The notes beneath the pieces were generated by a model. The model made no database searches and had not been told where the DNA came from. It saw nothing but the letters and a program-made list of their open reading frames with translations. Positions 3-46,910 of a stretch of DNA of 64,000 nt are shown here, one piece after another. How positions within the stretch are numbered: position 1 is the first letter of the stretch; every line of letters starts with the position of its first letter. The position numbers were made by a program, and so were the translations under genes. Source of the DNA: Dehalococcoidia bacterium (GTDB lineage Bacteria; Chloroflexota; Dehalococcoidia; UBA2979); contig OZ244720.1 in assembly GCA_965219085.1 (NCBI GenBank), forward strand, positions 672,001-736,000, read 5' to 3'.

Positions 3-3000
3 CGGCCGGTCCCGGCCGACCTGGGCCAGACGCTGCGGGTGCGGCTCGACTACGACGACAACGCCGAGTTCGTCGAGACGCTGACCAGCGCGGCGACGGC
101 GGCGGTGCAAGAGTCCCCCTACGGGGAGATCGTCTGGGCCGCCACGCTCACGGCGGGGCAGGCGGGCACGACCCTCGGCTTCAACAGCACCGGCCCGGTC
201 GGCTCCTTGGAGGCGAAAACGTTCGCGCCCGGCGCCATCACGGTGAGCCAGCTCACCTACGACGGCGGCGCGGGGACGTTCGCCGTCACGGGCTTGGGTT
301 CGGGCGACTACATCCTCTATCTCGGCAGCGGGCCGCAAGGCGCGCACGCGCTGATCGTGGATCCGGCGTCGGACGCCGACGACGTCTTCGACTTCTCCAG
401 CACCGGGCTGAGCTGGAGCGCCGGTCAAGCGGTGGAAGTGCGGCTGACGCTGAACCGCGAGCCCGTGGGCGTGCCCTTGATCAGCGGCGCGGCCGTCGAG
501 GGGACAACCCTGACGGCCGGGATCGAGAACGTCACGGACGCCGACGGCCTGCCCGCCTCCGATCAGTTCCGCTACCAGTGGATCGTGACCGACGGGGGGA
601 CCGAGTCCGAGATCACGGGGGCGACCGGCACGACCTATACGCCGGAGCTGACCGACCTCGGCAAGACCTACACGGTGCGGGTCGACTACACCGACAACGC
701 CAACTTCCCCGAGTCGCTGACCAGCGCGCCCACGGATCCGATCGAGGTACGCGGGCAGGTCATCTGGTCGGCGGAGCTGACCGTCGAGGGCTGGGGCCCG
801 ACAGACTCCAGATCGTCGGGTTTCGATGCATCATCCGCGCCCGTCCGTGGGGCGCTGCAGCCGGAGAGCATCACCTACAACAACGTCACCTACCAGGTCG
901 AATCCCTGTTCTACTTCGGCTTGCGGAACCCGCAGACCGGCAACGTGCTCCGCAAGACGATGTTCTTCTCGACGACCGCCGAGCTGCCGGCGGGCGACTA
1001 TGCCCTCTGGGTGGTGGATGACGACGGCGACGACGATCTGGGCGATCTTCCGTTCATCTTCCCGGCAGCCGATTCGGATGGATTCACTCAGACGCCCACC
1101 GAGCTCGACTGGGAACACGATGACACGGTGGACGTGCGGCTCACGGTCAACCGCCTGCCCGGCGGCGCGCTCACGATCAGCGGCCAGGCCAAGGTGGGCA
1201 CCACGGCGACGGCGGACGTCTCGGGCGTCACCGACGCCGACGGCCTGCCCGCCAGCGGCGAGTTCCAGTACCAGTGGTTCACCGTTGACAGCGGCTCCAA
1301 CACGTTGATCGGCGGTGCGACGGATCAGAACTACACGCCGGTGAGCGCCGATCTCGGGAAGTCGATCAGGGTGCGGCTGCGCTACACCGACGACGCCTTC
1401 TTCACCAACACCGTGTTCAGCGCCGCGGCGGTGGTGGCCTCGGGCACGGGCAACCACCCGCCGCAGTTTTCCACCACCTCCACGTCGCGGCCGTTGACCG
1501 AGAACACGGGGGCGGGCGTGAACGTCGGCGCGGCCGTCAGCGCCAGCGACGCCGACAGCGGCGACAGCCTGACCTACACGCTGGAGGGGACGGACGCCGG
1601 CTCGTTCGACATCGTCTCGACGAGCGGGCAGATCCAGACCAAGACGGGCGTGACCTACGACTTCGAGACGCAGTCGAGCTACTCCGTGACGGTCAAGGCC
1701 GACGACGGCAACGGTGGCACGGACACCGTCGCGGTGACCATCAACGTCGTGAACGTCAACGAGCCGCCGGTGATCAGCGGGGTGTCCAGTGTGAGCTACG
1801 CCGAGGGAGGCACGGCAGAGGTCGCCAGCTACAGCGCGACGGACGAGGAGGGGGCCACGATCACATGGTCGCTCTCGGGCACGGACGCCGGCGACTTCGA
1901 GATCGGCGCCAACAGCGGTGTGCTGACCTTCAAGACCTCGCCGGACCACGACAACCCCGCGGATGGGAACCGCGACAACGACTACGTCATCAGGGTGCAG
2001 GCCTCGGACGGGGCGAACCTGGTTCCGTTCGACGTGACCGTGACCGTCACCGGGGTGGACGAACTCCCGACCATCCCCAGCGGTCCGGCCAGCGTGGACT
2101 ACGCCGAGAACGGCACGGCGGCGGTCGCGACCTACAGCGCGACGGACCCGGAGGGCGACACGATCAGCTGGGCGCTGATAGGCCCCGACGCCGGCGCCTT
2201 CGCGATCGACGCCGGCGGCGTGCTGACGTTCGCCGCTACGCCCGACTACGAGAACCCCAGCGACCAGGGCGGCCAGTCCGGCGACAACGAGTACAGCCTG
2301 CTCGTCGTGGCCTCGGACGCCGGGAACAACACCGCCACGCTGGCCGTGACCGTGACCGTCACGCCCGTGGACGAGACTCCCGTGGTCGGCGGCCAGGCGA
2401 ACGTGAACTACGCAGAGAACGGCACGGCGGCCGTCGCGACCTACAGCGCGGCGGACCCGGAGGGCGACCCGATCACGTGGTCGCTGGCGGGCGCCGACGC
2501 CGGCGCCTTCGAGATCGACGCCACCGGCGTGCTGACGTTCGCCGCCCCGCCCGACTTCGAGAACCCCAGCGACCAGGGCGGCGACAACGAGTACGTCGTG
2601 ACGGTGCAGGCCTTCGACGGGACGAACATGGGCACGCGCGACGTGACCGTGACGGTCACCGACGCCAATGAGGATCCGGTCCTGAGCGGGCCGGCCGGCG
2701 TCGGCCACGACGAGCACGACATGGGCGACGTCGCGGTCTACGACGCGAGCGACCCCGAGGGCGCCATCATCATCTGGACGCTGGCGGGGACGGACAGCGG
2801 GTTCTTCTCCCTCAGCGGCGGCGTGCTGACGTTCAACACGCCGCCCAACTTCGAGCTCCCACAGGACGCGAACTTCAGCAACGACTACGAGATCACGATC
2901 GGGGCCTCCGACGGGGCCAACCCGGTGAGCCGGGCGGTGACCGTCACGGTGGTCGACCTCGAGGAGCCGGGGACGATCAGCCTCTCCTCGCCGCAGCCGC

Positions 3001-5792
3001 AGGTCGGGACCGGGCTGACGTCCACGCTCGATGAGCTCGACGCGATTGTCGGCGCCCCCGCCCGGACGTGGCATCGCTCGCCGGACGGGAGCACCGCCTG
3101 GAGCCTCATCACGGGGGCCACGGCGAGCAGCTACACGCCCGTGCAAGGCGATCTGAACTATTACCTGCGGGTGACGGTGTCGTACACCGACACGCACGGC
3201 CCCAAGACGCTGGAGGCCGTCTCGGCGAACGCGGTGCGGCCGGTGCCGACCGGCGCCAACAGTCGTCCCGAGTTCGACGAGGGCTTCAGCACGACCCGAT
3301 CCGTCGCCGAGAACTCGGCCGGCGACACGCTCATCGGCGACCCGGTGGAAGCTACCGACGCCGACCCCGACGACGTCGACGCACTGACCTACTCGTTCTC
3401 GGTCTCGGACCTCTTCACGGTCGACCCCGCCACGGGGCAGATCTCGGTCGCGGAGGGCGCGGTGCTCGACCACGAGGCGCAGCCTTCGCACACGGTCACG
3501 CTGACCGTCGCTGATCCCGGCCTCCTGGAAGACACCATCGCCGTCACCATCACCATCACCGACGTGAACGAAGCGCCCGTGGCGGTGCGCGACGTCGCCA
3601 CGACCGTCGAGGACACGCCGGTCACGATCGACGTGCTCACCAACGACAGCGACCCCGAGGATGACGCCCTGACCGTCACGGTGAGCACCCCGCCGAGCGA
3701 CGGCCTCGCCGAGGTCGATGCCGCCACCAACGAGATCACCTACAGGCCCAATACCGACTTCGAGGGTACGGACTCGTTCGGCTACCAGGTGACCGACGGC
3801 ATGTTCTTCTCCGCCGAGGCCACGGTCGTCGTGACCGTCACCGCGGTGAACGACGCGCCGGCGTTCCCGGAAGGTTCGGGCGAGCGCGAGGTCTACACGG
3901 GCGCCGCGGTGGACACGAAGGTGGGCGACCCGGTGGAGGCCACCGACCCGGATGTCGGCGACACGCTGACGTACGCACTCTCGGGCATCGACGCGAGCAG
4001 CTTCGAGATCGACGGGGACACGGGCCAGATCACTGTCGGCGCGGACACCGACATCGACCCCGAGGTCCAGGACACCTACGTGGTGACGGTCACCGCCTCC
4101 GACGGCACGCTCATGACGCCGATCGAGGTCACCATCACCGTCACGGAGCGCCCGGCGATCACCACCGGTGGCGGTGGCGGCGGTGGCGGCGGCGGGCCAT
4201 CGCCGAGCGAGTTGGACTTCGAGTGGAACGTGAAGCGCGACCTCGAGGCGCTGGACGGCGGCCACGACACGCCGACCGGCTCCTGGTCCGACGGCACAAC
4301 CCTCTGGGTACTCGAAAACGGCTCCGGCGCCGACGATGCCATCTACGCCTACGACCTGAAGACGGGCGAACGCCTGGAGGAGCGCGAGTTCGAACTCGAC
4401 GAGCGCAACCGTGCGCCGCGCGGCGTCTGGTCCGACGGCACGGTCATCTGGGTCTCCGACAGCGGCCAGGACCGCCTCTTCGCCTACGACCTCGAGACGG
4501 GCGAGCGGCTGCCGGAGCGCGACCTCGAGCTCGATGAGGACAACGGCGCCGCCCGCGGCATCTGGTCCGACGGCGTCACGATGTGGGTGCTCGACAGCCT
4601 CTTCGCCTACGACCTCGGGAGCGGCGAGCTACTCGCCGAGTACGCCCTCGACGACGCTAACGGCGACCCCTACGGGATCTGGTCCGACGGCGTCACCCTC
4701 TGGGTCTCCGACCACGGGGCGAAGCGGCTCTTCGCGTACCGGCTGCCGGAGGCGCCCGGCGGCTCGGTGGCCGACGACGCCGAGGTCACCTCGCTCGTGC
4801 GCATCCGCGAGGAGGAGTTCACGGAGCTGAGCAAGGCCTCCAACAACAGCCCGCGCGGTATCTGGTCGGACGGCGAGGTGATCTACGTGGCCGACGAGAG
4901 CGACGACAAGGTCTACAGCTACAACATGCCCGACGCGATCGACGCGCGCCTCGCCTCGCTCACGCTCAGCGGCATCGAGATCGGGGAGTTCACGGGGGAC
5001 CGCACGGAGTACGAAGGCGTCGCCGCCGAGGGGGTGACGGAGACGACCGTCGAGGCGGAGGCGCTGCAGCGCCGCACGACCGTCCTCATCGAGCCGGCCG
5101 ACGCCGACGGCGACGACACGAACGGCCACCAGCTGGCGCTGGAGGGGGTCACGGAGATCACGGTGACGGTGACCTCGGCGGACGGCAGCCGCACGCGCGT
5201 CTACGGCGTGCGGCTTGAGGGCGGCGCGGCGCAGGAAACGCCCTGGACGCACTGCTTGCGCGGCGACATCGCCGAGGGCTTCAGCCTCGTCGTCTATGAG
5301 GGCGGCAGCGTCGAGGACCTGGCCCTGTGCGCGGAGAGCCGCGATGTCGCGGCCCTCTACGCGCTGCACGGCGGCGTCTACGTCTCGTACATCCTCGGAG
5401 CGCCGGAGTTCGTGAACCAACCGTTCGCCGAGCTGTTCGCCGATGGCGTCCCCCCGGTCATGCCGCTGGTCGCTGGGAGCAGCGGACCGCCATCAGCGGA
5501 CCCGAACCTCGGCGACGGCGCCCTGTTGCCGTGGCCGGAGTGCCTGCGCGGCGAGATCGCCGAGGGCTTCAGCCTCGTCATCTACGAGGGCGGAAGCGTC
5601 GATGATCTCGTGGCCTGCGCGGAGAGCCTGGACGTCACGGCCCTCTACGCCCTGCACGACGACCAGTGGGTCTCCTACATCCTCGGAGCGCCGGAGTTCG
5701 TGAACCGCCCCTTCCGTGAGCTGTTCACTGAGGGCCTGCCCGCCATCGCAGCACTGGTCGCCAGGAGCGAGGGGGCTCCCGCAGCCAACTGA
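3..5792 (+). CDS. Giant secreted/surface protein, 5'-truncated by window edge: Ig-like (AIR9-type) repeats, about 8 cadherin repeats, Big_9, poly-Gly linker, shared constant C-terminal module
   Basis: Frame is open from position 3 (RPVPADLGQTLRVRLDY), so GTG at 39 is not the true start. Cadherin motifs (ATDPEGD..TWSL.G.DA..F.ID, PDFENPSD..DNEY), Big_9 (DVLTNDSDPE..ITYRPNTDFEGTDSF), and the constant C-module from ~4167. Confidence 0.9.
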   Translation, partial: RPVPADLGQTLRVRLDYDDNAEFVETLTSAATAAVQESPYGEIVWAATLTAGQAGTTLGFNSTGPVGSLEAKTFAPGAITVSQLTYDGGAGTFAVTGLGSGDYILYLGSGPQGAHALIVDPASDADDVFDFSSTGLSWSAGQAVEVRLTLNREPVGVPLISGAAVEGTTLTAGIENVTDADGLPASDQFRYQWIVTDGGTESEITGATGTTYTPELTDLGKTYTVRVDYTDNANFPESLTSAPTDPIEVRGQVIWSAELTVEGWGPTDSRSSGFDASSAPVRGALQPESITYNNVTYQVESLFYFGLRNPQTGNVLRKTMFFSTTAELPAGDYALWVVDDDGDDDLGDLPFIFPAADSDGFTQTPTELDWEHDDTVDVRLTVNRLPGGALTISGQAKVGTTATADVSGVTDADGLPASGEFQYQWFTVDSGSNTLIGGATDQNYTPVSADLGKSIRVRLRYTDDAFFTNTVFSAAAVVASGTGNHPPQFSTTSTSRPLTENTGAGVNVGAAVSASDADSGDSLTYTLEGTDAGSFDIVSTSGQIQTKTGVTYDFETQSSYSVTVKADDGNGGTDTVAVTINVVNVNEPPVISGVSSVSYAEGGTAEVASYSATDEEGATITWSLSGTDAGDFEIGANSGVLTFKTSPDHDNPADGNRDNDYVIRVQASDGANLVPFDVTVTVTGVDELPTIPSGPASVDYAENGTAAVATYSATDPEGDTISWALIGPDAGAFAIDAGGVLTFAATPDYENPSDQGGQSGDNEYSLLVVASDAGNNTATLAVTVTVTPVDETPVVGGQANVNYAENGTAAVATYSAADPEGDPITWSLAGADAGAFEIDATGVLTFAAPPDFENPSDQGGDNEYVVTVQAFDGTNMGTRDVTVTVTDANEDPVLSGPAGVGHDEHDMGDVAVYDASDPEGAIIIWTLAGTDSGFFSLSGGVLTFNTPPNFELPQDANFSNDYEITIGASDGANPVSRAVTVTVVDLEEPGTISLSSPQPQVGTGLTSTLDELDAIVGAPARTWHRSPDGSTAWSLITGATASSYTPVQGDLNYYLRVTVSYTDTHGPKTLEAVSANAVRPVPTGANSRPEFDEGFSTTRSVAENSAGDTLIGDPVEATDADPDDVDALTYSFSVSDLFTVDPATGQISVAEGAVLDHEAQPSHTVTLTVADPGLLEDTIAVTITITDVNEAPVAVRDVATTVEDTPVTIDVLTNDSDPEDDALTVTVSTPPSDGLAEVDAATNEITYRPNTDFEGTDSFGYQVTDGMFFSAEATVVVTVTAVNDAPAFPEGSGEREVYTGAAVDTKVGDPVEATDPDVGDTLTYALSGIDASSFEIDGDTGQITVGADTDIDPEVQDTYVVTVTASDGTLMTPIEVTITVTERPAITTGGGGGGGGGGPSPSELDFEWNVKRDLEALDGGHDTPTGSWSDGTTLWVLENGSGADDAIYAYDLKTGERLEEREFELDERNRAPRGVWSDGTVIWVSDSGQDRLFAYDLETGERLPERDLELDEDNGAARGIWSDGVTMWVLDSLFAYDLGSGELLAEYALDDANGDPYGIWSDGVTLWVSDHGAKRLFAYRLPEAPGGSVADDAEVTSLVRIREEEFTELSKASNNSPRGIWSDGEVIYVADESDDKVYSYNMPDAIDARLASLTLSGIEIGEFTGDRTEYEGVAAEGVTETTVEAEALQRRTTVLIEPADADGDDTNGHQLALEGVTEITVTVTSADGSRTRVYGVRLEGGAAQETPWTHCLRGDIAEGFSLVVYEGGSVEDLALCAESRDVAALYALHGGVYVSYILGAPEFVNQPFAELFADGVPPVMPLVAGSSGPPSADPNLGDGALLPWPECLRGEIAEGFSLVIYEGGSVDDLVACAESLDVTALYALHDDQWVSYILGAPEFVNRPFRELFTEGLPAIAALVARSEGAPAAN

Positions 5793-6034
5793 TCTCCCCG
5801 CGCAACCTGCGTCTGCTGGGCGAGACGTGCGTCCGTGCCGTCGGGTTCGTCGGGCTCCGGGCCACGGGCTCGCGCTCCAGCTCGAGGGGCTCCTCGACCG
5901 TCGCGGGCGGGAAGAAGCGCTGCTGCGGACCGGTGCCCAGCTCCGCCAGACGATGCGGGCGGCTGTCCGCGGGCGACCCCGTTGGACGGAGGCCCGGCGA
6001 CGGCCATGCGCAACACACACCAGGAGGGGACACG

Positions 6035-6121
6035 ATGACTCGCACAGCCAGACCCAGGCTCGCCATCCTGTTCGTCGCCCTGGCCGCGCTGCTCGCACTG
6101 TCCCGCAGGACTACAACGTGA
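6035..6121 (+). pseudogene. 28-aa stub of the array signal peptide (MTRTARPRLAILFVALAALLALSRRTTT*) with its conserved upstream leader/RBS
   Basis: 5977-6103 closely matches the leader and start of the genes at 19066 and 32871 (CCCCGTTGGACGGAGGC...GCCATGCGCAACAC.CACCAGGAGG...ACGATG; MAHTARPRLAILFAALAALLALS). It then stops with a TGA overlapping the GTG at 6118. Confidence 0.8.
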
Positions 6122-8055
6122 CGACAAACAGTGAGGGTGAGGTACTGCGAGAGCGCCAGTCCCGATGGCGCGAGGTCACTCTTCGCATCTACCGAAACCT
6201 CGATCTCGATGCTGTTCAGCGCGAGATCGCCTCAGGCGCACGCGTGCTCACAGGCGCCCGGTACAGTGGGATTACGACGCTCGACGACTCAGGGCAGCTG
6301 CAGGACTTCATTATTTCCGGTTTGACCCCAGACGACCGCCGGCGGTTCCTGAGTCAGCCCGGTGTTCAGGCATTCATTGATCACCTGAGCAAGATTTCGG
6401 AACCGGTGCGGGTCGAGGATCTCGGTAGCTACGTCCGCTCGGTCGGCGTGCCCGGCATTCAACTGCCCGCGAGTACCTTTCTGTCCGTACCGATCCATCA
6501 GCAGCGCAAGCCCATCGCCGGCATCCACCTCGCTCGGGAGAGGAGCGGTGACGCGTTCAGTGAGGAAGACGAAGAGAACGTGCGCCTGTTCACCGCGCAT
6601 GCTGCACAGGCCATCGCCAACGCCGCTCGCTTCGCGGCAACCAGCAAGACCCCGCAGGAGGACTTGACACGGCCCGAAGAGGTGGAGCGGCTGCGTGCAC
6701 AGCTCCTCGGCGGGGTCTACTACGACCTGAGCGTCCCGTTGACCTCGATCAAGGGATCCGTCGCCACCTTGCTGGACGGCTTCTCCGCCGACCTGGACCC
6801 TGCCGACATGCTTCCGTTTCTCCGGATTATCGACACGCACGCCAACCACATGCGCGGCCTACTCAGCAACCTGGTCGACAAGCCGGGGACGCTGCCGCTC
6901 TCTGCCGAACGGACGCAGGTGGCCAGCCTGGTGGACGAGGCCAGGACCCTGTTCCTCAGCAGAGGCGTCGGGAACAACATCCGGATCGACCTCGAGCCGG
7001 ACCTGCCCGCGGTCACGGTCGACAGGTGGCGCGTCATCCAGGTGTTGGACATCCTCCTGGTCAAAGCATCCAGGTACTCGCACGATTCGTCGGTCATCCG
7101 CGTGACCGCCGTACGAGACGCCGCTCACGTGACGTTGTCCATCACGAGCGAAGGCGAGGAGCGGGCACGTGACACTGTGCAAGACTCGGGTGGCCTGGCC
7201 TTCTGCAGAGGCGTCGTGGAGGCGCACGGCGGCCGCCTGTCGGCCGGGAGCGCGGGCCCCGGCCGCGGTGTGCAGTTCAGCGTCGTCATCCCCCTGATCG
7301 AGGCGGCCGGGGCGGGCCCCGCCGTAAGCTCCGCCCGGAGTTCTGACCCAGACCCGACGGCGCGCGAGCGAACTCGCATTCTCGTGATAGACAGCAACCC
7401 GCAGACACAGCCGTCCCTTCAGGACACGCTCACGAACGCGGGCTTCATGCCGATCATGACCGCCGAACCGGAGGAAGTTCCTGCTCTATTGAAGACGCAC
7501 GAACCGCACCTGGCATTGCTCGACGTGGTGCTACCCGCGACCGACGGAATCGACCTGATGCAGGAGATCCTCGCGATCGCCCGCATCCCGGTCATCTTCT
7601 TGTCCAGCTACCGCAGAGATCAGATTGTCGCAGAGGCCTTCGAACTGGGCGCCGCCGACTACATCCTCAAGCCCGCCTTGCCGCTCGAGTTGGTGGCGAG
7701 GATCAAGGCGGCGTTGCGCGAGCCCGTGGGGCGCGAGCAGGCCGAGCCGCCCGAACCCTATCTGCTCAAGGACCTCACCATCGACTACGCCCAACGCCGC
7801 GTGACGGTGGCTGGCCGTCCTGTGCGCCTGTCCGCCCTCGAGTACGAATTGCTCTTCGAGCTGAGCTCGCACGCCGGCCTCGTCATGACCCATGCCCAGC
7901 TGCTGAAACGCGTCTGGGCGGAGCGCAATACCCACGACCCGCGGACGGTCCGCACCGCCGTGAGGAGGCTCCGCCGCAAGCTGGGTGACGACGGCAAGAG
8001 CCGAACCTACATCTCGACCGAACCTCAAGTGGGCTACCGTATGGCGAAGCCCTAG
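6118..8055 (+). CDS. Hybrid regulator: GAF, degenerate HisKA/HATPase, receiver, OmpR/PhoB winged-helix DNA-binding domain
   Basis: Part of ORF 5716..8055; GTG at 6118 has AGGA 7 nt upstream. GAF (FLSVPI...IHLA...FSEEDEE), HisKA-like (DLSVPLTSIKGS), HATPase remnant (VEAHGGRL), REC (LALLDVVLP, ADYILKP), Trans_reg_C (LSALEYELLFEL, RTVRTAVRRLRRKLGD, TEPQVGYRM). Confidence 0.88.
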   Translation: MTTNSEGEVLRERQSRWREVTLRIYRNLDLDAVQREIASGARVLTGARYSGITTLDDSGQLQDFIISGLTPDDRRRFLSQPGVQAFIDHLSKISEPVRVEDLGSYVRSVGVPGIQLPASTFLSVPIHQQRKPIAGIHLARERSGDAFSEEDEENVRLFTAHAAQAIANAARFAATSKTPQEDLTRPEEVERLRAQLLGGVYYDLSVPLTSIKGSVATLLDGFSADLDPADMLPFLRIIDTHANHMRGLLSNLVDKPGTLPLSAERTQVASLVDEARTLFLSRGVGNNIRIDLEPDLPAVTVDRWRVIQVLDILLVKASRYSHDSSVIRVTAVRDAAHVTLSITSEGEERARDTVQDSGGLAFCRGVVEAHGGRLSAGSAGPGRGVQFSVVIPLIEAAGAGPAVSSARSSDPDPTARERTRILVIDSNPQTQPSLQDTLTNAGFMPIMTAEPEEVPALLKTHEPHLALLDVVLPATDGIDLMQEILAIARIPVIFLSSYRRDQIVAEAFELGAADYILKPALPLELVARIKAALREPVGREQAEPPEPYLLKDLTIDYAQRRVTVAGRPVRLSALEYELLFELSSHAGLVMTHAQLLKRVWAERNTHDPRTVRTAVRRLRRKLGDDGKSRTYISTEPQVGYRMAKP

Positions 8056-18372: not shown

Positions 18373-18498
18373 GCCCCCTCGGAGCGCGACACCGCTGCCA
18401 CTGAGCGCGGCCGAGTTCGCTCCGCCTTCCGCGCAGAACGCTCTTGCCCGGCAAGCGGCGTGACGGCTGCACTCCGCAGCGCGCCACCGCGTCGCTGG

Positions 18499-18527
18499 TT
18501 CTCAGGCAGTCGCTCATTGCCTGAGAA
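18499..18527. terminator. 10-bp-stem hairpin downstream of the protease gene (also at 32308-32336)
   Basis: TTCTCAGGCA-N9-TGCCTGAGAA perfect inverted repeat; no U-tract, so its function is uncertain. Confidence 0.4.
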
Positions 18528-18781
18528 GAGGCCACACGGCCCTCAATCCATGACATTCACGATATGTTCATAGAGCAGAGTCGTAAGTTCACGCCCCGTG
18601 CACTGACACCGAGCCAACGAACAGGAAGAATTGCCCCGTTGAACCCGGGAGAGCGCAACACGCTCGCGCGAGGGGGGCACTGGTGCGTCCGATGGTCGCG
18701 AAGTCGAACGGGAACGCGCGGCAGGCAAGCGCAACGGCGCTGCTGACCGCGTCCGGCGCTGCCTGCGCGCATCGCGCTACT

Positions 18782-18795: not shown

Positions 18796-18815
18796 CCCCC
18801 CCCCCCCCCCCCCCC
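18794..18815. repeat. C22 homopolymer in the upstream region of the 4371-aa gene
   Basis: 22 consecutive C; the homologous position upstream of the next gene has 19. Confidence 0.9.
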
Positions 18816-39200: not shown

Positions 39201-42200
39201 GCCCCCGCGTTCGCGAGCGATACGAACACCTACACCGTTGGAGTCGCGAACAGCGTCGAGACGATCACGCTGACGCCGGCGGCGAGCCACTCGTGGGCCT
39301 CGGTCGAGTATCTCGACGCGAGCGACCTGCCGATCACCGACGCCGACGGAATGACCGATGGCCAGCAGGTGGCGCTCGTGGTGGGTGCGAACACGATCAA
39401 GGTCAAGGTCACGGCCGAGGACGACGCCACGACCCAGACCTACACGCTGACGGTCACCCGAGCGGTGGCGGGGGCTGCCACCGAGGCGACGCTGAGCGAT
39501 CTGGTGCTGGACGACGGCACGAGCGAACTGGCGCTCACGCCGGCCTTCGCCAGCGGGACGACGAGCTACACGCGCTGGGTCGGCAACGGCATCGATCAGA
39601 TCACGGTGACGCCGGAGACGAGCGATGCGAATGCATCGGTCGAGTATCTCGACGCGGGCGACGCGACCATCAGCGACGCCGACACCATGACCACCGGCCA
39701 GCAGATCGATCTCATCGAGGGCGAGAACACGATCAAGGTCAAGGTCACCGCCGAGGACGACGCCACGACCGAGACCTACACGGTCGTCGTGACCCGCGCG
39801 GCCCCTGCCGCCTCGACCGACGCAACACTGAGCGGCCTGGTGCTGAACGACGGCGCCAACGACCTGACGCTCACCCCGGCCTTCGCCTCGGGGACGACGA
39901 GCTACGCGGCTTCGGTCGGCAACGCCGTCTCGCAGATCACGGTGACGCCCACAAAGAGCGACACGGACGCCTCGGTCGAATATCTGGACGCGAGCGACGG
40001 GGCCATCACCGACGCCGATGGCATGACCGCCGGCCAGCAGGTGGCGCTCGTCGAGGGCGCGAACACGATCAAGGTGAAGGTCACCGCGGAGGACGTGATC
40101 ACGACCGAGACCTACACGGTCGTCGTGACCCGCGCGGCCCCCGCCGCCTCGACCGACGCGACCTTGGTCTCGAACGAAGACGCAACGGCTGGGACGGGTA
40201 ACTCAAGCGTCATTCATGCGCAGAGCTTCGTCACCGGAACCAATGCCGGCGGATACACGCTCTCCGAAATCCAGATCCGGCTAGGAGATTCCAGTGCGGT
40301 GCCAGGCGTTACCGGCGTCATCGCGGCCGTCAAGGCCGATGACTCCGGCGCACCGGGCGCCCTCGTCGCCAATCTCGTCAATCCCGGCAGTCTGACCGCG
40401 GACGCATTCAATGCGTTCACCGCGCCGGCCGGCACGACGCTCTCCGCGAACACGACGTACTGGGTGGTGATAAACGAGGAGCGGAGCAGCAACTCCGACC
40501 GGGTGAGGTTGTTCTCTACCGCAGACGATGACGAGGACATAGCCCTGACGGGGTGGAGCATCGGGGACGGCCGCCTGTGGAAGTCCAACGCATCAGACGC
40601 CAGTTGGAACACCTCCGCTGACTCGAATCTGATCATCGTCAAGGGCACCGTGAAGGGGGGCGCCACCAACAACGCGCCGGTCTTCGCCGACGCCACGACG
40701 ACGCGCAGCGTGCCCGAGAACAGCGCCGTGGGCACGAACGTCGGGAGCGCGGTCACCGCCACCGACGCCGACAGCGACACGCTGGAGTACACCCTGGAGG
40801 GGACGGATGCCGCGTCCTTCACCATCGTCTCGACTTCCGGCCAGATCCAGACCAAGACGGGGGTGACCTACAACCACGAGGGCACGTCCAGCTATTCGGT
40901 GACGGTCAAAGCCGACGACGGCAACGGCGGGACCGACACGATCGGGGTGACGGTCACGGTCAGCGACGTGAACGAGGTGCCGTCGGCGCCGGAAGCGCCG
41001 GACGTTACGGCGGCCTCGGGGACGACGGACAGCCTGGTCGTGGACTGGAAGGAGCCGGCCAACACCGGACCGGCGATCACCGACTACGACGTGCAGTACC
41101 GAAAAGGCAACAGCGGCGCCTTCACCGCCTGGAGCCACACGGACGCCACCACGTCCGCGACGATCACGGGGCTGGAGGCGAGCACGTCCTACCAGGTGCA
41201 GGTGAAGGCCCGCAACGACGAGGGAGCGAGCGCCTGGTCGGCCAGCGGCACGGGGAGCACCGGGTCGCCAGCCAGCGACGCGGCGCTGACCGCTCTGGTG
41301 CTGAACGACGGCGCCAACGACCTGACGCTGACGCCGACCTTCGCCAGCGGGACGACGAGCTACGCGGCCTCGGTCGGCAACGGCATCGATCAGATCACGG
41401 TGACGCCGGAGAAGAGCGACACTGACGCCTCGGTGGAGTACCTCGACGCGAGCGACGGGGCCATCAGCGATGCCGACGGGTCGGCCAGCGGCCAGCAGGT
41501 GGCGCTCGATGTGGGCGCGAACACGATCAAGGTCAAGGTCACCGCCGAGGACGCGACGACGACCCAGACCTACACGGTCGTCGTGACCCGCGCGGCCCCC
41601 GCCGCCTCGACCGACGCGGCGCTGAGCGGTCTGGTGCTGAACGACGGCGCCAACGACCTGACGCTCACCCCGGCCTTCGCCTCGGGGACGACGAGCTACG
41701 CGGCTTCGGTCGGCAACGGCATCGATCAGATCACGGTGACGCCAACCAAGAGCGACACGAACGCCTCGCTCGAGTATCTCGACGCGAACGGCGCGATCAT
41801 CAGCGACGCCGACGGGTCGGCCAGCGGCCAGCAGGTGGCGCTCGATGTGGGCGCGAACACGATCAAGGTCAAGGTCACCGCCGAGGACGCGACGACGACC
41901 CAGACCTACACGGTCGTCGTGACCCGCGCGGCCCCCGCCGCCTCGACCGACGCGGCGCTGAGCGGTCTGGTGCTGAACGACGGCGCCAACGACCTGACGC
42001 TCACCCCGGCCTTCGCCTCGGGGACGACGAGCTACGCGGCTTCGGTCGGCAACGGCATCGATCAGATCACGGTGACGCCAACCAAGAGCGACACGAACGC
42101 CTCGCTCGAGTATCTCGACGCGAACGGCGCGATCATCAGCGACGCCGACGGGTCGGCCAGCGGCCAGCAGGTGGCGCTGGAGGTGGGCGCGAACACGATC

Positions 42201-45200
42201 AAGGTGAAGGTCACCGCCGAGGACGCGACGACGACCGAGACCTATACGGTCGTCGTGACCCGCGCGGCCCCCGCCGCCTCGACCGACGCGGCGCTGAGCG
42301 GTCTGGTGCTGAACGGCGGCGCCAACGACCTGACGCTCACGCCGGCCTTCGCCAGCGGGACGACGAGCTACGCGGCCTCGGTCGGCAACGGCATCGATCA
42401 GATCACGGTGACGCCAACCAAGAGCGACACGAACGCCTCGCTCGAGTATCTCGACGCGAACGGCGCGATCATCAGCGACGCCGACGGGTCGGCCAGCGGC
42501 CAGCAGGTGGCGCTGGAGGTGGGCGCGAACACGATCAAGGTGAAGGTCACCGCCGAGGACGCGACGACGACCGGGACCTACACGGTCGTCGTGACGCGCG
42601 CGGCCCCCGCCGCCTCGACTGACGCGGCGCTGAGCGGTCTGGTGCTGAACGACGGGACGAACGACCTGACGCTCACCCCGGCCTTCGCCTCGGGGACGAC
42701 GAGCTACGCGGCCTCGGTCGGCAACGGCATCGATCAGATCACGGTGACGCCGGAGAAGAGCGACACGGACGCCTCGGTCGAGTATCTGGACGGTAACGAC
42801 GCGGCGATCAGCGACGCCGACGGGTCGGCCGCCGGCCAGCAGGTGGCGCTCGATGTGGGCGCGAACACGATCAAGGTCATGGTCACCGCCGAGGACGCGA
42901 CGACGACCGAGACCTACACGGTCGTCGTGACCCGCGCCATGGCGGGTCCGGTGGCGCCGCTGCCGCGGCCAGACACGCTGGTCAGCAATATCGGTAAAGC
43001 TAACACCGGCATCGCCCCCCTGGACGCATATGATTTTACCCAGGAGTTTACGACCGGCGACAACAGCGACGGCTATACGCTAACCAGCGTCGACATCGAG
43101 TTTGGCCAAGTTGAGGAAGCCAGGATCACCTACGCGGTCAGCATCCGGGAAGACAAGACCGGCGAGCCGGGAAGGAAAATCGAAAGGCTCACCGACCCGG
43201 CCAGGCTCTCGGCCAACGCCCTCAATACGTACACGACATCCGGCATCGCTCTGGCGGCGAACACGACCTACTTCGTACTGGTGAACAGTAGCACTACCCA
43301 CACTACCTATCTGCGGTACACCAGTTCGGATGCGGAGGATTCCGGGGCTGCGAGCGATTGGACGATTGGCGACGCCAGCCTCTTACGGTTCCAGCACGGA
43401 GGCACCTGGGGCACTTCTTCCGAGACCATCAAAATCCGCATCAACGGCACGGTGACGGGGGCCGACGCGACGCTGAGCGGTCTGGCGCTGCACGACGGCG
43501 CCAACGAGCTGACGCTCACGCCGACGTTCTCCTCGGGGACGACGAGCTACGCGGCCTCGGTCGGCGACGCCGTCTCGCAGATCACGGTGACGCCCACGAA
43601 GAGCGACGCGGACGCCTCGGTGGAGTACCTCGACGCGAGCGACGGGGCCATCAGCGACGCCGACGGGATGGCCAGCGGCCAGCAGGTGGCGCTCGTCTTG
43701 GGCGCGAACACGATCAAGCTCAGGGTCACCGCCGCGGACGCGATGACGACCGTGACCTACACGGTCGTCGTCACCCGCGCGGCGACGGCCTCGAGCGACG
43801 CAACGCTGAGCGGTCTGCTGCTGAACGACGGCGCCAACGAGCTGACGCTCACCCCAAGCTTCGCCTCCGGAACGACGAGCTACGCGGCCTCGGTCGGCAA
43901 CGCTGTCTCGCGGATCACGGTGACGCCGGAGAAGAGCCACACGGACGCCTCGCTCGAGTATCTCGACGGAAACGATGCGGCGATCAGCGACGCCGACGGG
44001 GCGGCCAGCGGCCAGCAGGTGGCGCTCGTGGTGGGCGCGAACACGATCAAGGTCGAAGTCACCGCCGCGGACGCGATGACGACCGTGACCTACACGATCG
44101 TCGTGACCCGCACCACTGGCCCCGGCACGGAGCCCGGCCCGCCCACCAACGTGCAGGCGTCGGGCAACGCCGAGCTCGGCGTCACCTGGGACGCCCCCGA
44201 CGACGGCGGCAGCGCCATCAGCGGCTACACGCTGCAGTGGAAGTCGGGCGCCGAGAGCTACAGCACGACGCGGCAAGCCACTGTCACGACCACCACCCAC
44301 ACCATCCCGGCGCTGACCAACGGCACGACCTACACGGTGCGGGTCAAGGCGACCAACACCCACGGCGACAGCGGCTGGACCGAGATCACGGCCACGCCGG
44401 GATCCGGCGCCGGCGTGGCGTCGGTGACGGTGGACCAGGCCAGCATCACCCAGACCAGCGCAGACGTCATCGTGACGGTGGAGAACCTCCAGGGCGTAGG
44501 CCACACGGTGTACGTGCGCTACCGGGAGGCGGGCGCTAACTGGCCGGGGAGCGCGAACCTGCTCCTGGCGACCAGCGGGACTGCCATCACCGTCACCCTG
44601 GCCGGCCTGAGCGGGAACACGGACTACGACGTGGCGGCGTCCCTGGACAGCGGCATCGCCCCGGGAGTCCGGACCGCCAGCTTCACGACCTTGCGCACGA
44701 AGCCGGGTAAGACCAGGGCGGTGAACGTCACCTTCGAAGGGGACGGCCAGTTCAGCATCGGCTGGACCCAGCCCGAGAACGACGGCGGGTCGCCCATCAC
44801 CGGTTACCAGGTGCAGTGGAAGTCGGGCAGCCAGAGCTTCGGCGGCGATCCGTCGCGGGAGGACACCACCGGGGCTTCGCCGAGGACCTACGTCGTCACC
44901 GGGCTGACCAACGGCACCGCGTACACGGTGCGGGTGATTGCGGTGAACGCCGTCGGCGACGGCCCGCCGTCCGATGAGCAGACAGCCACCCCCGTCGTCG
45001 GCAAGCCGGACGCGCCCGGCAACGTGCAGGCATTGTCGGGCAACGCCGAGCTGACCGTGACCTGGGACGGCCCCTACGACGGCGGCAGCGCCATCACCGA
45101 GTACACCCTGCAGTGGAAGTCGGGCAACCAGAGCTTCGGGGGCGATCCGTCGCGGGAGGACACCACCGGGGCTTCGCCGAGGACCTACGTCGTCACCGGG

Positions 45201-46910
45201 CTGGCCAACGGCACCCAGTACGCGGTGCGGGTCAAGGCGACCAACACCAACGGCGACAGCGGCTGGTCCGTCGAGGCGACGGGCACTCCCCGTTCCAGCA
45301 TCACCACCGGCGGCGGAGGCGGCGGTGGTGGTGGTGGCCCGTCGGGGCCCTCGCCGAGCGAGCTGGACTTCGAGTGGAACGTGAAGCGCGACCTCGAAGC
45401 GCTGGACGGCGGCCACGACACGCCGACCGGCTCCTGGTCCGACGGCACGGTCCTCTGGATCGCCGAGAACGGCCCGGGCGCCGGCGACGCCGTCTACGCC
45501 TACGACCTCCAGACCGGCGAACGGGTGGAGGAGCGCGAGTTCGAACTCGACGAGCGCAACCGCGCGCCGCGCGGCGTCTGGTCCGACGGCGAGACGGTGT
45601 GGGTCTCCGACAGCGGCCAGGACCGCCTCTTCGGCCATGACCTCGAGACGGGCGAGCGGCTGCCGGAGCGCGACCTCGAGCTCGACGAGGACAACGGCGC
45701 CGCCCGCGGCATCTGGTCGGATGGCGAGAGGATGTGGGTGCTCGACGGCGGCAAGGACAGCCTCTTCGCCTACGACCTCGGGAGCGGCGCGCTGGTGGCC
45801 GAGTACGCCCTCGACGACGCCAACGGCGACCCCCACGGCATCTGGTCGGACGGCGTCACGATCTGGGTCTCGGACCACGGCGCGAAGCGGCTCTTCGCCT
45901 ACCGCCTCGATGATGGGGCGCTCGTACGCAACAGCGAGGAGGAGTTCACGGAGCTGAGCAAGGCCTCCAACAACAGCCCGCGCGGCATCTGGTCGGACGG
46001 CGAGGTGATCTACGTGGCCGACGAGAGCGACGACAAGGTCTACAGCTACAACATGCCCGACGCGATCGACGCGCGCCTCGCCTCGCTGACGCTGAGCGGC
46101 ATCGAGATCGGGGAGTTCTCGGGGGACCGCACGGAGTACGACGGCGTCGCCGCCGAGGGCGTGACGGAGACGACGGTCGAGGCGGAGGCGCTGCAGCGCC
46201 GCACGACCGTCCTCATCGAGCCGGCCGACGCCGGCGGCGACGACACGAACGGCCACCAGCTGGCGCTGGAGGGCATCGACGCGATCACGGTCACCGTGAC
46301 CTCGGCCGACGGCAGCCGCACGCGCGTCTATCGCGTGCGGCTTGAGGGCGGCGCGGCGCAGGAAGCGCCCTGGACGCACTGCTTGCGCGGCGACATCGCT
46401 GAGGGCTTCAGCCTCGTCGTCTATGAGGGCGGCGGCGTCGAGGAACTGGTCACCTGCGCGGAGAGCCGCGATGTCGTGGCCCTCTACGCGCTGCACGGCG
46501 GCGAGTTCGTCTCGTACATCCTTGGAGCGCCGGAGTTCGTGAACCAACCGTTCGTCGAGCTGTTCGCCGATGGCGTCCCCCCGGTCACGCCGCTGGTCGC
46601 TGGGAGCAGCGGACCGCCATCAACGGACCCGAACCTCGGCGACGGCGCCCTGTTGCCCTGGCCGGAGTGCCTGCGCGGCGAGATCGCCGCGGGCTTCAGC
46701 CTCGTCATCTATGAGGGCGGTAGCGTCGATGATCTCGTGGCCTGCGCGCAGAGCCTGGCCGTCACGGCCCTCTACGCGCTCCACGACGGCGAGTTCGTTC
46801 CCTACATCCTTGGTGCGCCCGACTTCGTGAACCGCGACTTCAGGGAGTTGTTCGCCGACGGCCTGCCCGCCATCGCAGCACTGGTCGCCAGGAGCGAGGG
46901 GCACCCGTAG
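32871..46910 (+). CDS. Giant secreted protein (4679 aa): FN3, three GDQFRL lectin-fold-like domains, Ig, internal NHL-like propeller, Calx-beta, about 11 cadherin-like beta-sandwich repeats, two TLVSN..Q.F.TG domains, FN3s, constant C-terminal module
   Basis: AGGAGG RBS, signal peptide; repeated W.L.P....GDQFRL.F...DARDNTGT...GVPIYWLNG...Y.G.WD...WTG; LVLNDG.NDLTLTPAFASGTTSY...NTIKVKVTAED repeats. Confidence 0.93.
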   Translation: MAHTARPRLAILFAALAALFLCLTGPPAQAQGGSVPEKPTGLSSEASHDSVSLTWDDPGDDSITHYQVFRRDRDVHAAGEFVTITENTGSAATGYTDDTVEPERRYVYRVKAVNAHGASTWSGYRRASTPAAPAPDPTPTPTPTPDPADLAPSGLTAEPARGRGVALRWTAPAEDAASVTGYEVLRAQGKAELTTLADTDSTDTTYTDETATAAGETYAYQVKALRGEEKSQGSNYAVAGIPAVRERNDPPIAVRQSGMTKVLPSWSLIPSGVGPGDQFRLMFLTTNRDARPTDIDVYNEWVQGRAAGGHDDVRYYAETFKALGCTAADDARDNTGTTHTNDDKGVPIYWLNGPKVADEYDDLYDGDWDEEAKMRTRGGSERNNPQYVWTGCNHNGTKYSGAHLGSTEPLLGRPNTSDGPLSSSNVLHKANDLNLYALSDVFETAFPSYAVWSATLTVGTESATPDDFYGFMGSTGDLDPDNFIYDTSTVTVTELGYRGDTAYFDIGSGKDALGSGEFSLYVGGTYLRISNPAADSDGRLTLQDHGLSWSAGDTVVVFLTENQEASGEPTIIGAPQVGERLSADTSSGITDPNNSPPTADGFSYQWILVDGGVETDVPGATASIYWPSPADVGKRLKLKVSFTDDAGFDEEVTSEATNPVAPVAVTWVSSDWSLIPDGLGAGDQFRLLFVSSDDRKAGASDIDDYNDWIQQQVADNGHAGIQGYNGLFRAVGSTNDVDARDNTGTRFTAGETGVPIYWLNGAQVADDYEDFYDGDWDDEVDVRDETGAAPTSIGRVWTGSDHDGTEQFTNGASRALGNSGGAWVRQGSLNSASGGPLSRDTADRNSNNEMYGLSGVFRVADAPVVPLDWGLLPSRLSEGDQFRLLFLSSETRTAESTDIADYNTWVQALAGAGHTDIQGYRPYFRVVGSTADVDARDNTGTTFTDADTGVPIYWLNGSKAADHYRDFYNGNWDQEASMRDEAGTIVFTFHPWTGSKHDGTEAFSSGDSRALGAASVRRGQPNSTVAGSGPLSSNSDASASEVGKFYALSDVFEVFTNSRPTAGPTISGFPQLGMTLTADASTIVDPDGTSGASFSYQWVRSEAGTDSEISGATATSYTLVEADVGTLIKVTVSYSDGEDMAETATSEPLGPVGRVVIDSAGNVDARGVWLESAAAGGFIIRLSDDEDDRVYGYTTGPLTHSPAHGFDLHADNGDATGIAAADGVLWVADRGDDQLFAYNVGASGTFGARLTAKEFDLHADNQRPAGVWTDGETLYVADPDEAKLFAYRVGAGGTFGESLADQDVALHADNDAPWGVWSTGTVIWVADRSDDFIYAYSLSAGGARLDAVALRWEWPLDTADGNTDPWGMWSDDDRLWVLDDGRSKLFAYYLPLPSAPDPPAAVAISGDGVGELTVEWEAPGDDGGSAISGYTVQWKSGAESFDSSREGTAAATARSQTIPNLTNDTEYTLRVQATNANGGSDWAETTGTPRAAAVSITGDTEFVREGTAAAFTLSRTGPAAAALTVSVLVTQEGSFIDGTLPTSVTIAAGDAEAPLRIATEDDDLGEDDGSIKVTITGVSSAIAISQTAGSATVAVRDDSDLKAKVSVDVESLTFAESVGTVTLKYAARMEPNVSPFAFAVSVLTDRGTARTLDGDFEGFSEHVTVAATDFQIENGQQVAHKTVDITINNNHAGRWEGDETFDFLVQRAPGTPGSVLVVDGDGNNAVGGATTTITIADNDAAPSLDMSVSPSLVEEGDSATLTVTIADGSAFAADQTIALTFSGTATRDVDYTADLATADVDALTLAAGLTEVAATVTVLDDAIDDDTGETIVIEAAHAGTSFSETYTLTIGVASLASDTALSALVLNDGTDDLTLTPAFASGTTSYAASVGNAVAQITVTPAKRDTDASLEYLDADDATISDADGMTAGQQVDLIEGENTIKVKVTAEDDATTETYTVVVTRAQRCDGTQLWCETMTVGTGAGTILGWSASGIVIAGGSLGGGDQDFDYGTHTYSFAIIFLSGTTLGIEFGAGAAGDLASTRTRDKLVFTVDGQAFGLGAGNLAANGRGVNWTSTGLTWMAGGTVDLEVVEAAVSTDAALSDLSLSDGTLAPAFASDTNTYTVGVANSVETITLTPAASHSWASVEYLDASDLPITDADGMTDGQQVALVVGANTIKVKVTAEDDATTQTYTLTVTRAVAGAATEATLSDLVLDDGTSELALTPAFASGTTSYTRWVGNGIDQITVTPETSDANASVEYLDAGDATISDADTMTTGQQIDLIEGENTIKVKVTAEDDATTETYTVVVTRAAPAASTDATLSGLVLNDGANDLTLTPAFASGTTSYAASVGNAVSQITVTPTKSDTDASVEYLDASDGAITDADGMTAGQQVALVEGANTIKVKVTAEDVITTETYTVVVTRAAPAASTDATLVSNEDATAGTGNSSVIHAQSFVTGTNAGGYTLSEIQIRLGDSSAVPGVTGVIAAVKADDSGAPGALVANLVNPGSLTADAFNAFTAPAGTTLSANTTYWVVINEERSSNSDRVRLFSTADDDEDIALTGWSIGDGRLWKSNASDASWNTSADSNLIIVKGTVKGGATNNAPVFADATTTRSVPENSAVGTNVGSAVTATDADSDTLEYTLEGTDAASFTIVSTSGQIQTKTGVTYNHEGTSSYSVTVKADDGNGGTDTIGVTVTVSDVNEVPSAPEAPDVTAASGTTDSLVVDWKEPANTGPAITDYDVQYRKGNSGAFTAWSHTDATTSATITGLEASTSYQVQVKARNDEGASAWSASGTGSTGSPASDAALTALVLNDGANDLTLTPTFASGTTSYAASVGNGIDQITVTPEKSDTDASVEYLDASDGAISDADGSASGQQVALDVGANTIKVKVTAEDATTTQTYTVVVTRAAPAASTDAALSGLVLNDGANDLTLTPAFASGTTSYAASVGNGIDQITVTPTKSDTNASLEYLDANGAIISDADGSASGQQVALDVGANTIKVKVTAEDATTTQTYTVVVTRAAPAASTDAALSGLVLNDGANDLTLTPAFASGTTSYAASVGNGIDQITVTPTKSDTNASLEYLDANGAIISDADGSASGQQVALEVGANTIKVKVTAEDATTTETYTVVVTRAAPAASTDAALSGLVLNGGANDLTLTPAFASGTTSYAASVGNGIDQITVTPTKSDTNASLEYLDANGAIISDADGSASGQQVALEVGANTIKVKVTAEDATTTGTYTVVVTRAAPAASTDAALSGLVLNDGTNDLTLTPAFASGTTSYAASVGNGIDQITVTPEKSDTDASVEYLDGNDAAISDADGSAAGQQVALDVGANTIKVMVTAEDATTTETYTVVVTRAMAGPVAPLPRPDTLVSNIGKANTGIAPLDAYDFTQEFTTGDNSDGYTLTSVDIEFGQVEEARITYAVSIREDKTGEPGRKIERLTDPARLSANALNTYTTSGIALAANTTYFVLVNSSTTHTTYLRYTSSDAEDSGAASDWTIGDASLLRFQHGGTWGTSSETIKIRINGTVTGADATLSGLALHDGANELTLTPTFSSGTTSYAASVGDAVSQITVTPTKSDADASVEYLDASDGAISDADGMASGQQVALVLGANTIKLRVTAADAMTTVTYTVVVTRAATASSDATLSGLLLNDGANELTLTPSFASGTTSYAASVGNAVSRITVTPEKSHTDASLEYLDGNDAAISDADGAASGQQVALVVGANTIKVEVTAADAMTTVTYTIVVTRTTGPGTEPGPPTNVQASGNAELGVTWDAPDDGGSAISGYTLQWKSGAESYSTTRQATVTTTTHTIPALTNGTTYTVRVKATNTHGDSGWTEITATPGSGAGVASVTVDQASITQTSADVIVTVENLQGVGHTVYVRYREAGANWPGSANLLLATSGTAITVTLAGLSGNTDYDVAASLDSGIAPGVRTASFTTLRTKPGKTRAVNVTFEGDGQFSIGWTQPENDGGSPITGYQVQWKSGSQSFGGDPSREDTTGASPRTYVVTGLTNGTAYTVRVIAVNAVGDGPPSDEQTATPVVGKPDAPGNVQALSGNAELTVTWDGPYDGGSAITEYTLQWKSGNQSFGGDPSREDTTGASPRTYVVTGLANGTQYAVRVKATNTNGDSGWSVEATGTPRSSITTGGGGGGGGGGPSGPSPSELDFEWNVKRDLEALDGGHDTPTGSWSDGTVLWIAENGPGAGDAVYAYDLQTGERVEEREFELDERNRAPRGVWSDGETVWVSDSGQDRLFGHDLETGERLPERDLELDEDNGAARGIWSDGERMWVLDGGKDSLFAYDLGSGALVAEYALDDANGDPHGIWSDGVTIWVSDHGAKRLFAYRLDDGALVRNSEEEFTELSKASNNSPRGIWSDGEVIYVADESDDKVYSYNMPDAIDARLASLTLSGIEIGEFSGDRTEYDGVAAEGVTETTVEAEALQRRTTVLIEPADAGGDDTNGHQLALEGIDAITVTVTSADGSRTRVYRVRLEGGAAQEAPWTHCLRGDIAEGFSLVVYEGGGVEELVTCAESRDVVALYALHGGEFVSYILGAPEFVNQPFVELFADGVPPVTPLVAGSSGPPSTDPNLGDGALLPWPECLRGEIAAGFSLVIYEGGSVDDLVACAQSLAVTALYALHDGEFVPYILGAPDFVNRDFRELFADGLPAIAALVARSEGHP
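41277..42940 (+). repeat. Five tandem near-identical 336-bp cadherin-like beta-sandwich coding repeats
   Basis: GACGCGGCGCTG unit starts at 41277, 41613, 41949, 42285, 42621. Confidence 0.92.

Follow-up and report, generated by a model that had tools for sequence, protein, structure and literature searches.

Several described systems come close to the locus analysed here, a cluster of giant genes in a 64,000-nt stretch of DNA from a Dehalococcoidia bacterium (hereafter the window: positions 672,001 to 736,000 of contig OZ244720.1, assembly GCA_965219085.1), in which four genes end in one common block, the C-module, preceded by different segments, the payloads. The Cwp proteins of Clostridioides difficile, with CWB2 modules, and the SLH proteins of Bacillus and Clostridium are otherwise unrelated secreted proteins which share one repeated module and are encoded by clustered, co-oriented genes; modules of these types are thought to hold proteins on the cell. 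The window shows the same arrangement, but its tail is a 520-aa composite containing a propeller and no known anchoring domain, and its role in retention is putative. Dockerin-bearing cellulosomal enzymes also show a constant, internally duplicated C-terminal module on varied enzymes and binding domains, whereas the terminal domain pair of the window has another fold (beta-alpha-beta-beta-alpha-beta plus a cysteine pair) and no cohesin-like partner of it was found or is known. In pilE/pilS of Neisseria, vlsE of Borrelia and MgPar of Mycoplasma genitalium, variable segments stand between conserved blocks and the copies undergo gene conversion with one another, as in the window; however, the window copies are all complete genes with unrelated payloads of kilobase size, and there is no single expression site. 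The fim genes of Bordetella vary in phase by means of a poly-C tract. A long homopolymer also lies upstream of surface-protein genes in the window, where its length differs between otherwise identical copies. Phase variation by promoter or 5' homopolymers is described for H. pylori sabA and N. meningitidis nspA (PMC2715451, PMC6389960). In contrast to sabA, nspA and fim, the window tract lies about 250 nt from the start codon and the lineage is new. Finally, the archaeal surface-layer protein 1l0q shows a propeller followed by an Ig-like sandwich, as the C-module does, but the global TM score is 0.27/0.35 at 14% identity, the window propeller is 5-bladed and the terminal pair has no counterpart in it.

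Two types of system were considered and rejected. Cassette-based antigenic variation was discarded because every copy in the window is a full open reading frame (ORF), four out of five with a visible start and signal peptide; there are no silent or promoterless cassettes in the window, and the sole fragment is a 28-codon stub. Site-specific inversion of the shufflon type was discarded because the intergenic gaps contain no recombinase-sized ORF (the sole gap ORF, 8130-8795, has no Pfam match) and the inverted repeats are short, weak and GC-rich, 70-82% complementary except for one 24-nt pair.

The window has a G+C content of 69.5% and, according to an ORF scan, contains five very large ORFs and one regulator ORF within its first 47 kb, all on the plus strand (Table 1). 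On balance, it is probable that these are tandem paralogous genes for giant surface proteins which carry the tail of a family, whose ends are homogenised by conversion and whose display varies through poly-C tracts. The cluster would encode giant Sec-exported multi-domain surface proteins combining adhesion-type repeats with enzymes, and the C-terminal tail would keep the secreted protein attached to the cell or dock it to a common receptor, a function comparable to that of SLH, CWB2 or dockerin modules. The poly-C tracts (C22 and C19), presumably hypermutable, would be the main source of display variation: slipped-strand mispairing would switch or tune genes 5 and 6 independently, and the adjoining conserved hybrid kinase/regulator would add conventional control. 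An earlier note, made from the sequence of this DNA alone, had described five co-oriented secreted genes, four of which share a C-terminal block of about 1.6 kb. The genes and the block, present in genes 1, 4, 5 and 6, were found as described; secretion stands for genes 3-6, whose N-termini resemble Sec signal peptides as judged by eye, while the start of gene 1 lies beyond the window.

The C-module contains about 520 aa: a poly-Gly hinge, five repeats of about 45 aa that carry a WSDG motif, a cadherin-like sandwich (PF12733) and, in tandem, two repeats of about 80 aa, the terminal pair. In the model of the whole C-module, with a predicted local distance difference test score (pLDDT) of 81.4, the WSDG repeats are predicted to form a 5-bladed propeller. 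The model of the propeller shows TM scores of 0.68-0.74 to 5-bladed glutaminyl cyclases (root-mean-square deviation 3.0-3.2 A, identity 14-16%, no profile match), and its top local Foldseek match is a fragment of 1l0q, the archaeal surface-layer protein with a YVTN propeller and PKD (E 1.7e-10). The AlphaFold2 model of the terminal pair, built on an alignment of 30 family members, has a pLDDT of 88.5 and a predicted TM score (pTM) of 0.83; both repeats show the predicted order beta-alpha-beta-beta-alpha-beta, and two cysteines per repeat are invariant in 30/30 sequences. A search of a protein atlas with the terminal pair gave no usable match; this is a novel, undescribed domain pair. A SPOR-like identity of the repeats was considered, and no result supports it. 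The alignment of the C-module ends in a short polar tail with no hydrophobic stretch, and no match to SLH, CWB2, LysM, LPXTG, PEP-CTERM or type IX secretion system C-terminal domain (T9SS CTD) profiles was found in Pfam and NCBIfam.

The C-module is common to a large family of the Dehalococcoidia lineage and is not peculiar to this locus. A hidden Markov model (HMM) of the terminal pair, searched against 1.84 billion representatives clustered at 50% identity, matched 826 clusters at E<=1e-3 and 179 at E<=1e-30. The match ends at most 20 aa from the C-terminus in 112 of the 150 best matches (90 of 100 among listed proteins of at least 600 aa), and the series of propeller, sandwich and terminal pair is located at the C-terminal end in 85 of 96 listed proteins of at least 700 aa. 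A genome scan for the C-module gave 67 loci (1.35 Mb), from the best 80 of 167 confirmed stretches: 21 of them show near-full-length C-modules (at least 480 aligned residues), and L009 and L028 show shorter ones which reach the terminal pair. All 23 loci with the terminal pair are labelled as Dehalococcoidia, Tepidiformaceae or Chloroflexi/Chloroflexota metagenome-assembled genomes (MAGs). The C-modules of the related loci show 53-74% identity, with several copies per genome, three of which are in tandem in L003. A stop codon is found at most 15 aa past the C-module in 27 of 28 full-length genomic matches. The sole full-length C-module that is not terminal is in L013 (10001-12694), where the ORF runs 386 aa further, and the first copy of L008 contains an internal stop codon.

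What precedes the C-module measures as little as 0-2 aa, which leaves no payload (one such match is truncated at the end of its locus), and as much as more than 3300 aa. The payloads of the relatives include an S8 protease, LRR with PKD, 28 FG-GAP repeats, Spondin_N, 13 Calx-beta domains, GSDH, PPDK_N, arylsulfotransferase, sulfatase, RCC1 and GLUG. PPDK_N, which is of ATP-grasp type and unexpected for exported proteins, is found in C-module genes of L003 (9164-17976), L008 (7256-11602) and L006 (9077-11548). Over evolutionary time, the C-module has thus been joined to many types of payload. The fixed tail stands behind a flexible hinge on both enzymes and adhesins, as is the pattern of a retention or docking module; the C-module is probably a shared surface-retention or docking module. 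The propeller is also found without the rest of the C-module, often in tandem arrays, in loci labelled Acidimicrobiales, Ca. Poriferisodalis, Limisphaerales, Latescibacterota, Gemmatimonadaceae and Vicinamibacterales. Long tandem WSDG propeller arrays lie within giant genes of L030-L067 (e.g. L041 4910-14401 and L046 7766-13639), loci labelled with several other phyla, and show 31-43% identity to the window propeller, which suggests lateral spread of the propeller domain.

Within the window, the C-module copies show a pairwise nucleotide identity of 87-94% over 1.6-3.0 kb and a mean column identity of 89% in protein. A near-identical repeat of 2.66 kb covering C-module, spacer and N-module, reported in the earlier note, was confirmed: 16770-19430 and 30579-33235 are 97.1% identical over 2661 columns, and blastn lengthens the repeat to 3028 nt at 94.4%. 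Its longest exact stretch has 1027 nt (17767-18793), and the copies show 5 differences in total across 17700-19100. Kilobase repeats at 87-100% identity cannot be attributed to chance. The spacer has no homologue outside the window (blastn and tblastx against all related loci); spacer copy 1 contains one sigma-70-like site (18603-18631), and a terminator scan at both gene ends found none. Genes 1 and 4 are homologous (78% in nucleotides) for a further 1.5 kb 5' of the C-module, in the cadherin/Big_9 stalk (2655-5774 and 15250-18366), and genes 5 and 6 have about 300 additional nt in common, an FN3 (from 30281 and 45004); therefore, the 5' limit of the common block varies by pair.

The four C-modules of the window form one clade (Shimodaira-Hasegawa approximate likelihood ratio test, SH-aLRT, 99), whose sister is that of L050, and identity along the copies is mosaic: B and D are 100% identical where C shows 90%, and elsewhere B and C are 100% identical. 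This single clade with mosaic identity indicates gene conversion. The recombination test comprised 1533 codon-aligned positions, 208 polymorphic sites and 5000 permutations. For four of the six pairs, none of the 5000 permutations reached the longest observed run of concordant sites, the other two pairs show p values of 0.003 and 0.03, and all three incompatible 2:2 site patterns are present (4, 6 and 50 sites). The constant blocks are thus recombination substrates, as the earlier note had held: the window copies are shown to be kept alike by gene conversion or unequal crossing-over, and a single recent tract is shown to have carried over the end of the C-module, the entire spacer and the following gene's leader. 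The C-module copies have dN/dS ratios of 0.30-0.45 and are therefore under purifying selection.

The payload of gene 4 shows a different history. Gene 4 is collinear end to end with its S8 orthologues in two other genomes, L001 and L027, with 37-40% identity in the payload and 52-55% in the tail half, and it is located downstream of the hybrid regulator, as its L001 orthologue is of a homologous regulator. In the approximately unbiased (AU) test, a tree which constrains the tails of the four S8 genes to one clade is rejected, being worse by 547 log-likelihood units. Gene 4 is collinear with its orthologues, yet its tail groups with paralogues of the same genome; therefore, the gene ends are overwritten around a payload that remains in place. 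Elsewhere, FG-GAP and cadherin genes each retain C-module lineages of their own in different genomes. The simplest reading of these comparisons would be that payloads are old and fixed and that conversion overwrites the ends, with the strongest effect in this genome.

The poly-C tracts C22 and C19, which the earlier note does not mention, show identical flanks and are located in spacers that are otherwise 99.4% identical; the 1027-nt exact run stops at the tract. The window otherwise avoids homopolymers, with 3 of at least 8 nt against about 18 expected, and the expectation of a run of at least 19 under independent and identically distributed (i.i.d.) bases is 1.6e-4 per window. The 67 related loci contain 12 tracts of at least 10 nt, and nine of these fall between -350 and +100 nt relative to the start codon of a large ORF (at least 800 aa), a zone that contains 4.9% of the bases. 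Tracts of C and tracts of G are both present on the coding strand, which favours a mechanism at the DNA level, putatively slipped-strand mispairing, over an RNA element. C22 and C19 are long tracts 5' of a surface-protein gene, as used to recognise phase-variable loci of the slipped-strand type, and they suggest phase-variable expression of genes 5 and 6. Within the literature library searched, no paper ties phase variation by homopolymeric tracts to Chloroflexi.

At the 5' ends, the leader, signal peptide and FN3 announced by the earlier note are complete in genes 5 and 6, with 90% aa identity, and its leader-type FN3 is present twice in gene 3 (64% and 71% identity). The leader stub noted at 6035 is also homologous to the leader: 5968-6099 shows 89% identity to the leader region in a sliding window and 84% over 63 nt by blastn. 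The TGA of the stub overlaps the GTG of the hybrid regulator gene by 4 nt; therefore, translation of the regulator may start from a 5' region of the kind that the giant genes have. Regulator homologues with 46-48% identity adjoin such giant genes in L001 and L043; L037 and L034 contain distant ones (about 30-33%), and L050 a partial one with 49-56% identity over the last 210 residues, approximately. The leader motif is present in 20 of the 119 relatives found for residues 130-700 of gene 5, and only two of these 20, genes 5 and 6, also carry the terminal pair. Of the 18 others, which belong to other assemblies, 13 giants of 2735-3767 aa have an alternative constant C-terminal block of 450 aa, 79-98% identical, and by their sequences these 13 giants form a second constant-variable-constant family. 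The nearest foreign relative of the gene 5 payload is P0161 (78% identity), in which the HMMs find neither leader nor tail.

Several observations weigh against the account favoured here, of tandem paralogues with a retention tail and poly-C-based variation. The terminal pair belongs to no Pfam or NCBIfam family and has no solved structural neighbour (Foldseek against PDB, best E 0.55); the putative envelope-binding role of the tail is read from its position and not from experiment or homology, and the propeller could equally be a ligand-binding head. The tail is absent from gene 3 and from 18 of 18 giants of other genomes that bear the leader; therefore, not every member of the cluster needs it. 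The S8 group behind the p-AU of 3.6e-5 was named after the tree had been seen. The binomial value of 3e-10 for the placement of the tracts takes all bases as its null, while homopolymers prefer intergenic DNA and each locus has a giant gene at its centre; this null is generous and the true significance is therefore lower. The difference between C22 and C19 is one of 3 nt between two paralogous copies and could be a homopolymer sequencing error. Finally, some 250 nt separate the tracts from the start codons, and the single sigma-70-like site that was detected lies upstream of the tract.

The earlier note had proposed a candidate payload-shuffling display system, in which recombination between the constant N- and C-blocks could excise, duplicate or swap payloads in frame; surface diversity would regularly arise in this way. 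The constant blocks have demonstrably recombined, the 13.8-kb unit is bracketed by 3 kb at 94-100% identity, and the 6035 stub resembles the footprint of an earlier junction. The pairing of leader and terminal pair in genes 5 and 6 only, the relative P0161 with neither, and the 13 giants with another C-terminal block also fit such exchange, and the last make the constant-variable-constant arrangement a recurring layout. However, the collinearity of the S8 gene with its orthologues, its conserved regulator neighbour and the separate C-module lineages of FG-GAP and cadherin genes point to payloads that stay in place. Tandem direct repeats would lead to deletion or amplification of the 13.8-kb unit and not to exchange, unrelated payloads of 5-13 kb would exceed ordinary conversion tracts, and the gaps, inverted repeats and gene copies of the window offer no recombinase, no real inverted repeats and no promoterless cassettes. 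The arrangement matches that of a large protein family whose members share one C-terminal module; the proposal of a distinct system is not supported, and regular shuffling is considered quite unlikely. The interpretation of the earlier note is thus upheld in part: the constant blocks do recombine, but this works as homogenisation within a widespread family. A broader version, a previously unrecognised surface-display system of uncultured Dehalococcoidia in which a new docking tail (propeller, sandwich and a novel, putatively disulfide-bearing domain pair) plugs many payloads into one receptor or lattice and the set is varied both by poly-C switching and by recombination of the N- and C-blocks (deletion, amplification, re-pairing), is likewise held to be distinctly improbable.

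The C-module could also be the business end of the protein, binding host matrix, a glycan or another cell, with anchoring or release by other means. The tandem propeller arrays in loci labelled with other phyla, at 31-43% identity, fit a laterally spread binding domain, a divergent propeller is found inside gene 6, and cadherin and FN3 genes are reported as enriched and laterally transferred in host-associated MAGs, Chloroflexota included (PMC8163846). On the other side, the strict C-terminal place after a poly-Gly hinge, in enzymes as well as in adhesins, is a pattern of retention or sorting, the mature N-terminus would be free after cleavage of the signal peptide, and no other anchor signal was seen in these proteins; a binding role for the C-module is thus regarded as unlikely. 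An assembly artefact, either a duplicated copy or joined alleles or strains, would explain the near-identical repeat, and a 1027-nt exact run with homopolymers is classic trouble for assemblers. However, identity decays gradually on either side of the exact core, and genes 5 and 6 sit on a contig of 3,305,961 nt, which argues against mis-assembly; the two repeat copies connect to different payloads, within intact reading frames (4371 and 4679 aa), and other assemblies also show multi-copy C-modules, in tandem in L003 and near-identical on separate contigs in L018 and L026. This explanation is considered very improbable.

Should the tail indeed serve in retention or docking, it would define how an entire uncultured Chloroflexota lineage mounts enzymes and adhesins, some as large as about 5000 aa, on its surface, and the mounting would run through a domain pair with no Pfam model or solved structural neighbour. 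Contingency loci are a strategy known mainly from host-adapted pathogens, and the long G/C tracts found 5' of giant secreted genes in loci labelled with several phyla would be an early hint of such loci in uncultured bacteria. The locus is also a clean natural case of concerted evolution acting on gene ends while payloads stay orthologous.

Table 1. Coordinates of the features of the window, with tracts of related loci and relatives bearing the leader.
Feature	Position	Strand	Description
Gene 1	3..5792	+	Ig-like/cadherin/Big_9 stalk and C-module; 5' end beyond window (ORF, Pfam)
C-module copy A	4158..5792	+	gene 1
Leader stub	5968..6121	+	homologue of gene 5/6 5' region; 28-codon ORF, ATG 6035 to TGA 6119-6121
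Hybrid sensor kinase/OmpR-type response regulator	6118..8055	+	GAF-HisKA-HATPase-REC-Trans_reg_C (Pfam, NCBIfam)
Gene 3	8865..11495	+	signal peptide, three FN3 (two leader-type), no C-module
Gene 4	11749..18372	+	own signal peptide, PPC, S8 protease, P-domain, FN3, cadherin, Big_9, C-module
Gene 4 S8 protease domain	13339-14139	+	Pfam
C-module copy B	16768..18372	+	gene 4
Repeat copy 1	16770..19791	+	C-module B, spacer, gene 5 leader/N-module
Spacer copy 1	18373..19065	+	693 nt, 99.4% identical to 32182-32870
Poly-C tract C22	18794..18815	+	251 nt upstream of gene 5 ATG 19066
Gene 5	19066..32181	+	4371 aa; N-module, two GH16, SWM, cadherin, FN3, PKD, C-module
Gene 5 leader/FN3 N-module	19066-19470	+	
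Gene 5 GH16 domains	20329-20835 and 26224-26652	+	Pfam, 79.5 bits, two stretches, above gathering score
Gene 5 Calx-beta array	~21811-23600	+	about seven Calx-beta domains (Pfam/NCBIfam)
C-module copy C	30577..32181	+	gene 5
Repeat copy 2	30579..33575	+	C-module C, spacer, gene 6 leader/N-module
Poly-C tract C19	32603..32621	+	250 nt upstream of gene 6 ATG 32871
Gene 6	32871..46910	+	4679 aa; leader/FN3 N-module, seven FN3 stretches, C-module
Gene 6 divergent propeller copy	36354-37109	+	
Gene 6 PF12733 domains	38441-44130	+	12 copies (Pfam)
Gene 6 choice-of-anchor R	best ~40173-40649	+	two stretches (NCBIfam)
C-module copy D	45309..46910	+	gene 6
DUF6094 methylase-helicase	47395-51222	-	
RadC	51557-52435	-	
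SSB	52707-53159	-	
Rad52-family protein	53838-54935	-	
CHC2-Toprim primase	54760-56358	-	
TrbL/VirB6	58938-60272	+	
T4SS pilin	60022-60711	+	
TraC/VirB4	62707-end of window	+	
C19 in L013			32 nt before a 1605-aa signal-peptide gene, itself after a C-module gene
C13 in L050			upstream of the C-module gene of the closest relative
G15 in L031			between divergent genes
Other tracts			C13 twice in L040; G14 in L046; G12 in L053; C14 and C13 in L064
Leader giants with alternative C block			P0171, P0187, P0201, P0222, P0223, P0225, P0226, P0227, P0233, P0237, P0238, P0257, P0259

The payload domains named by the earlier note stand in part. The S8 protease of gene 4 and the two GH16 domains of gene 5 are assigned by Pfam, as is the cadherin/Big_9 stalk of gene 1, and in gene 4 the S8 protease and P-domain score above gathering (134 and 68 bits, respectively). 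The three lectin-like domains proposed for gene 6 were not recovered: 33471-35400 gives no significant match in Pfam and none in a PDB sequence search, which also gave no match for residues ~200-1160. Gene 6 shows an internal repeat as well (34881-35321 and 35472-35906), and the C-terminal half of gene 3 has no significant Pfam match. Gene 5 contains two large internal duplications with different offsets, one of 2.0 kb at 91.7% identity (19864-21822 and 25714-27735) and the other of 1.6 kb at 90.6% (24106-25689 and 28699-30276), and because of these large duplications it shows two GH16 copies. In gene 4, the placement of the start codon is uncertain. Upstream of its signal peptide, the same-frame translation of 11587-11760 resembles a final FN3 strand, and this fragment may be a frameshift, a recombination relic or part of a gene whose start was mis-called. 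An ATG at 11616 with a strong ribosome-binding site is in a different frame from gene 4 and ends after 30 codons.

No Rfam family and no tRNA or tmRNA gene was found in the window. Directly 3' of the array, 47395-63999 shows a slightly higher G+C content and contains genes typical of a conjugative element, including a pilin of the type IV secretion system (T4SS) and a gene for a single-stranded DNA-binding protein (SSB); no integrase or tRNA was seen within the window. In this block, a tandem direct repeat of about 0.58 kb with 90.7% identity (52630-53213 and 53174-53750) overlaps the SSB gene region.

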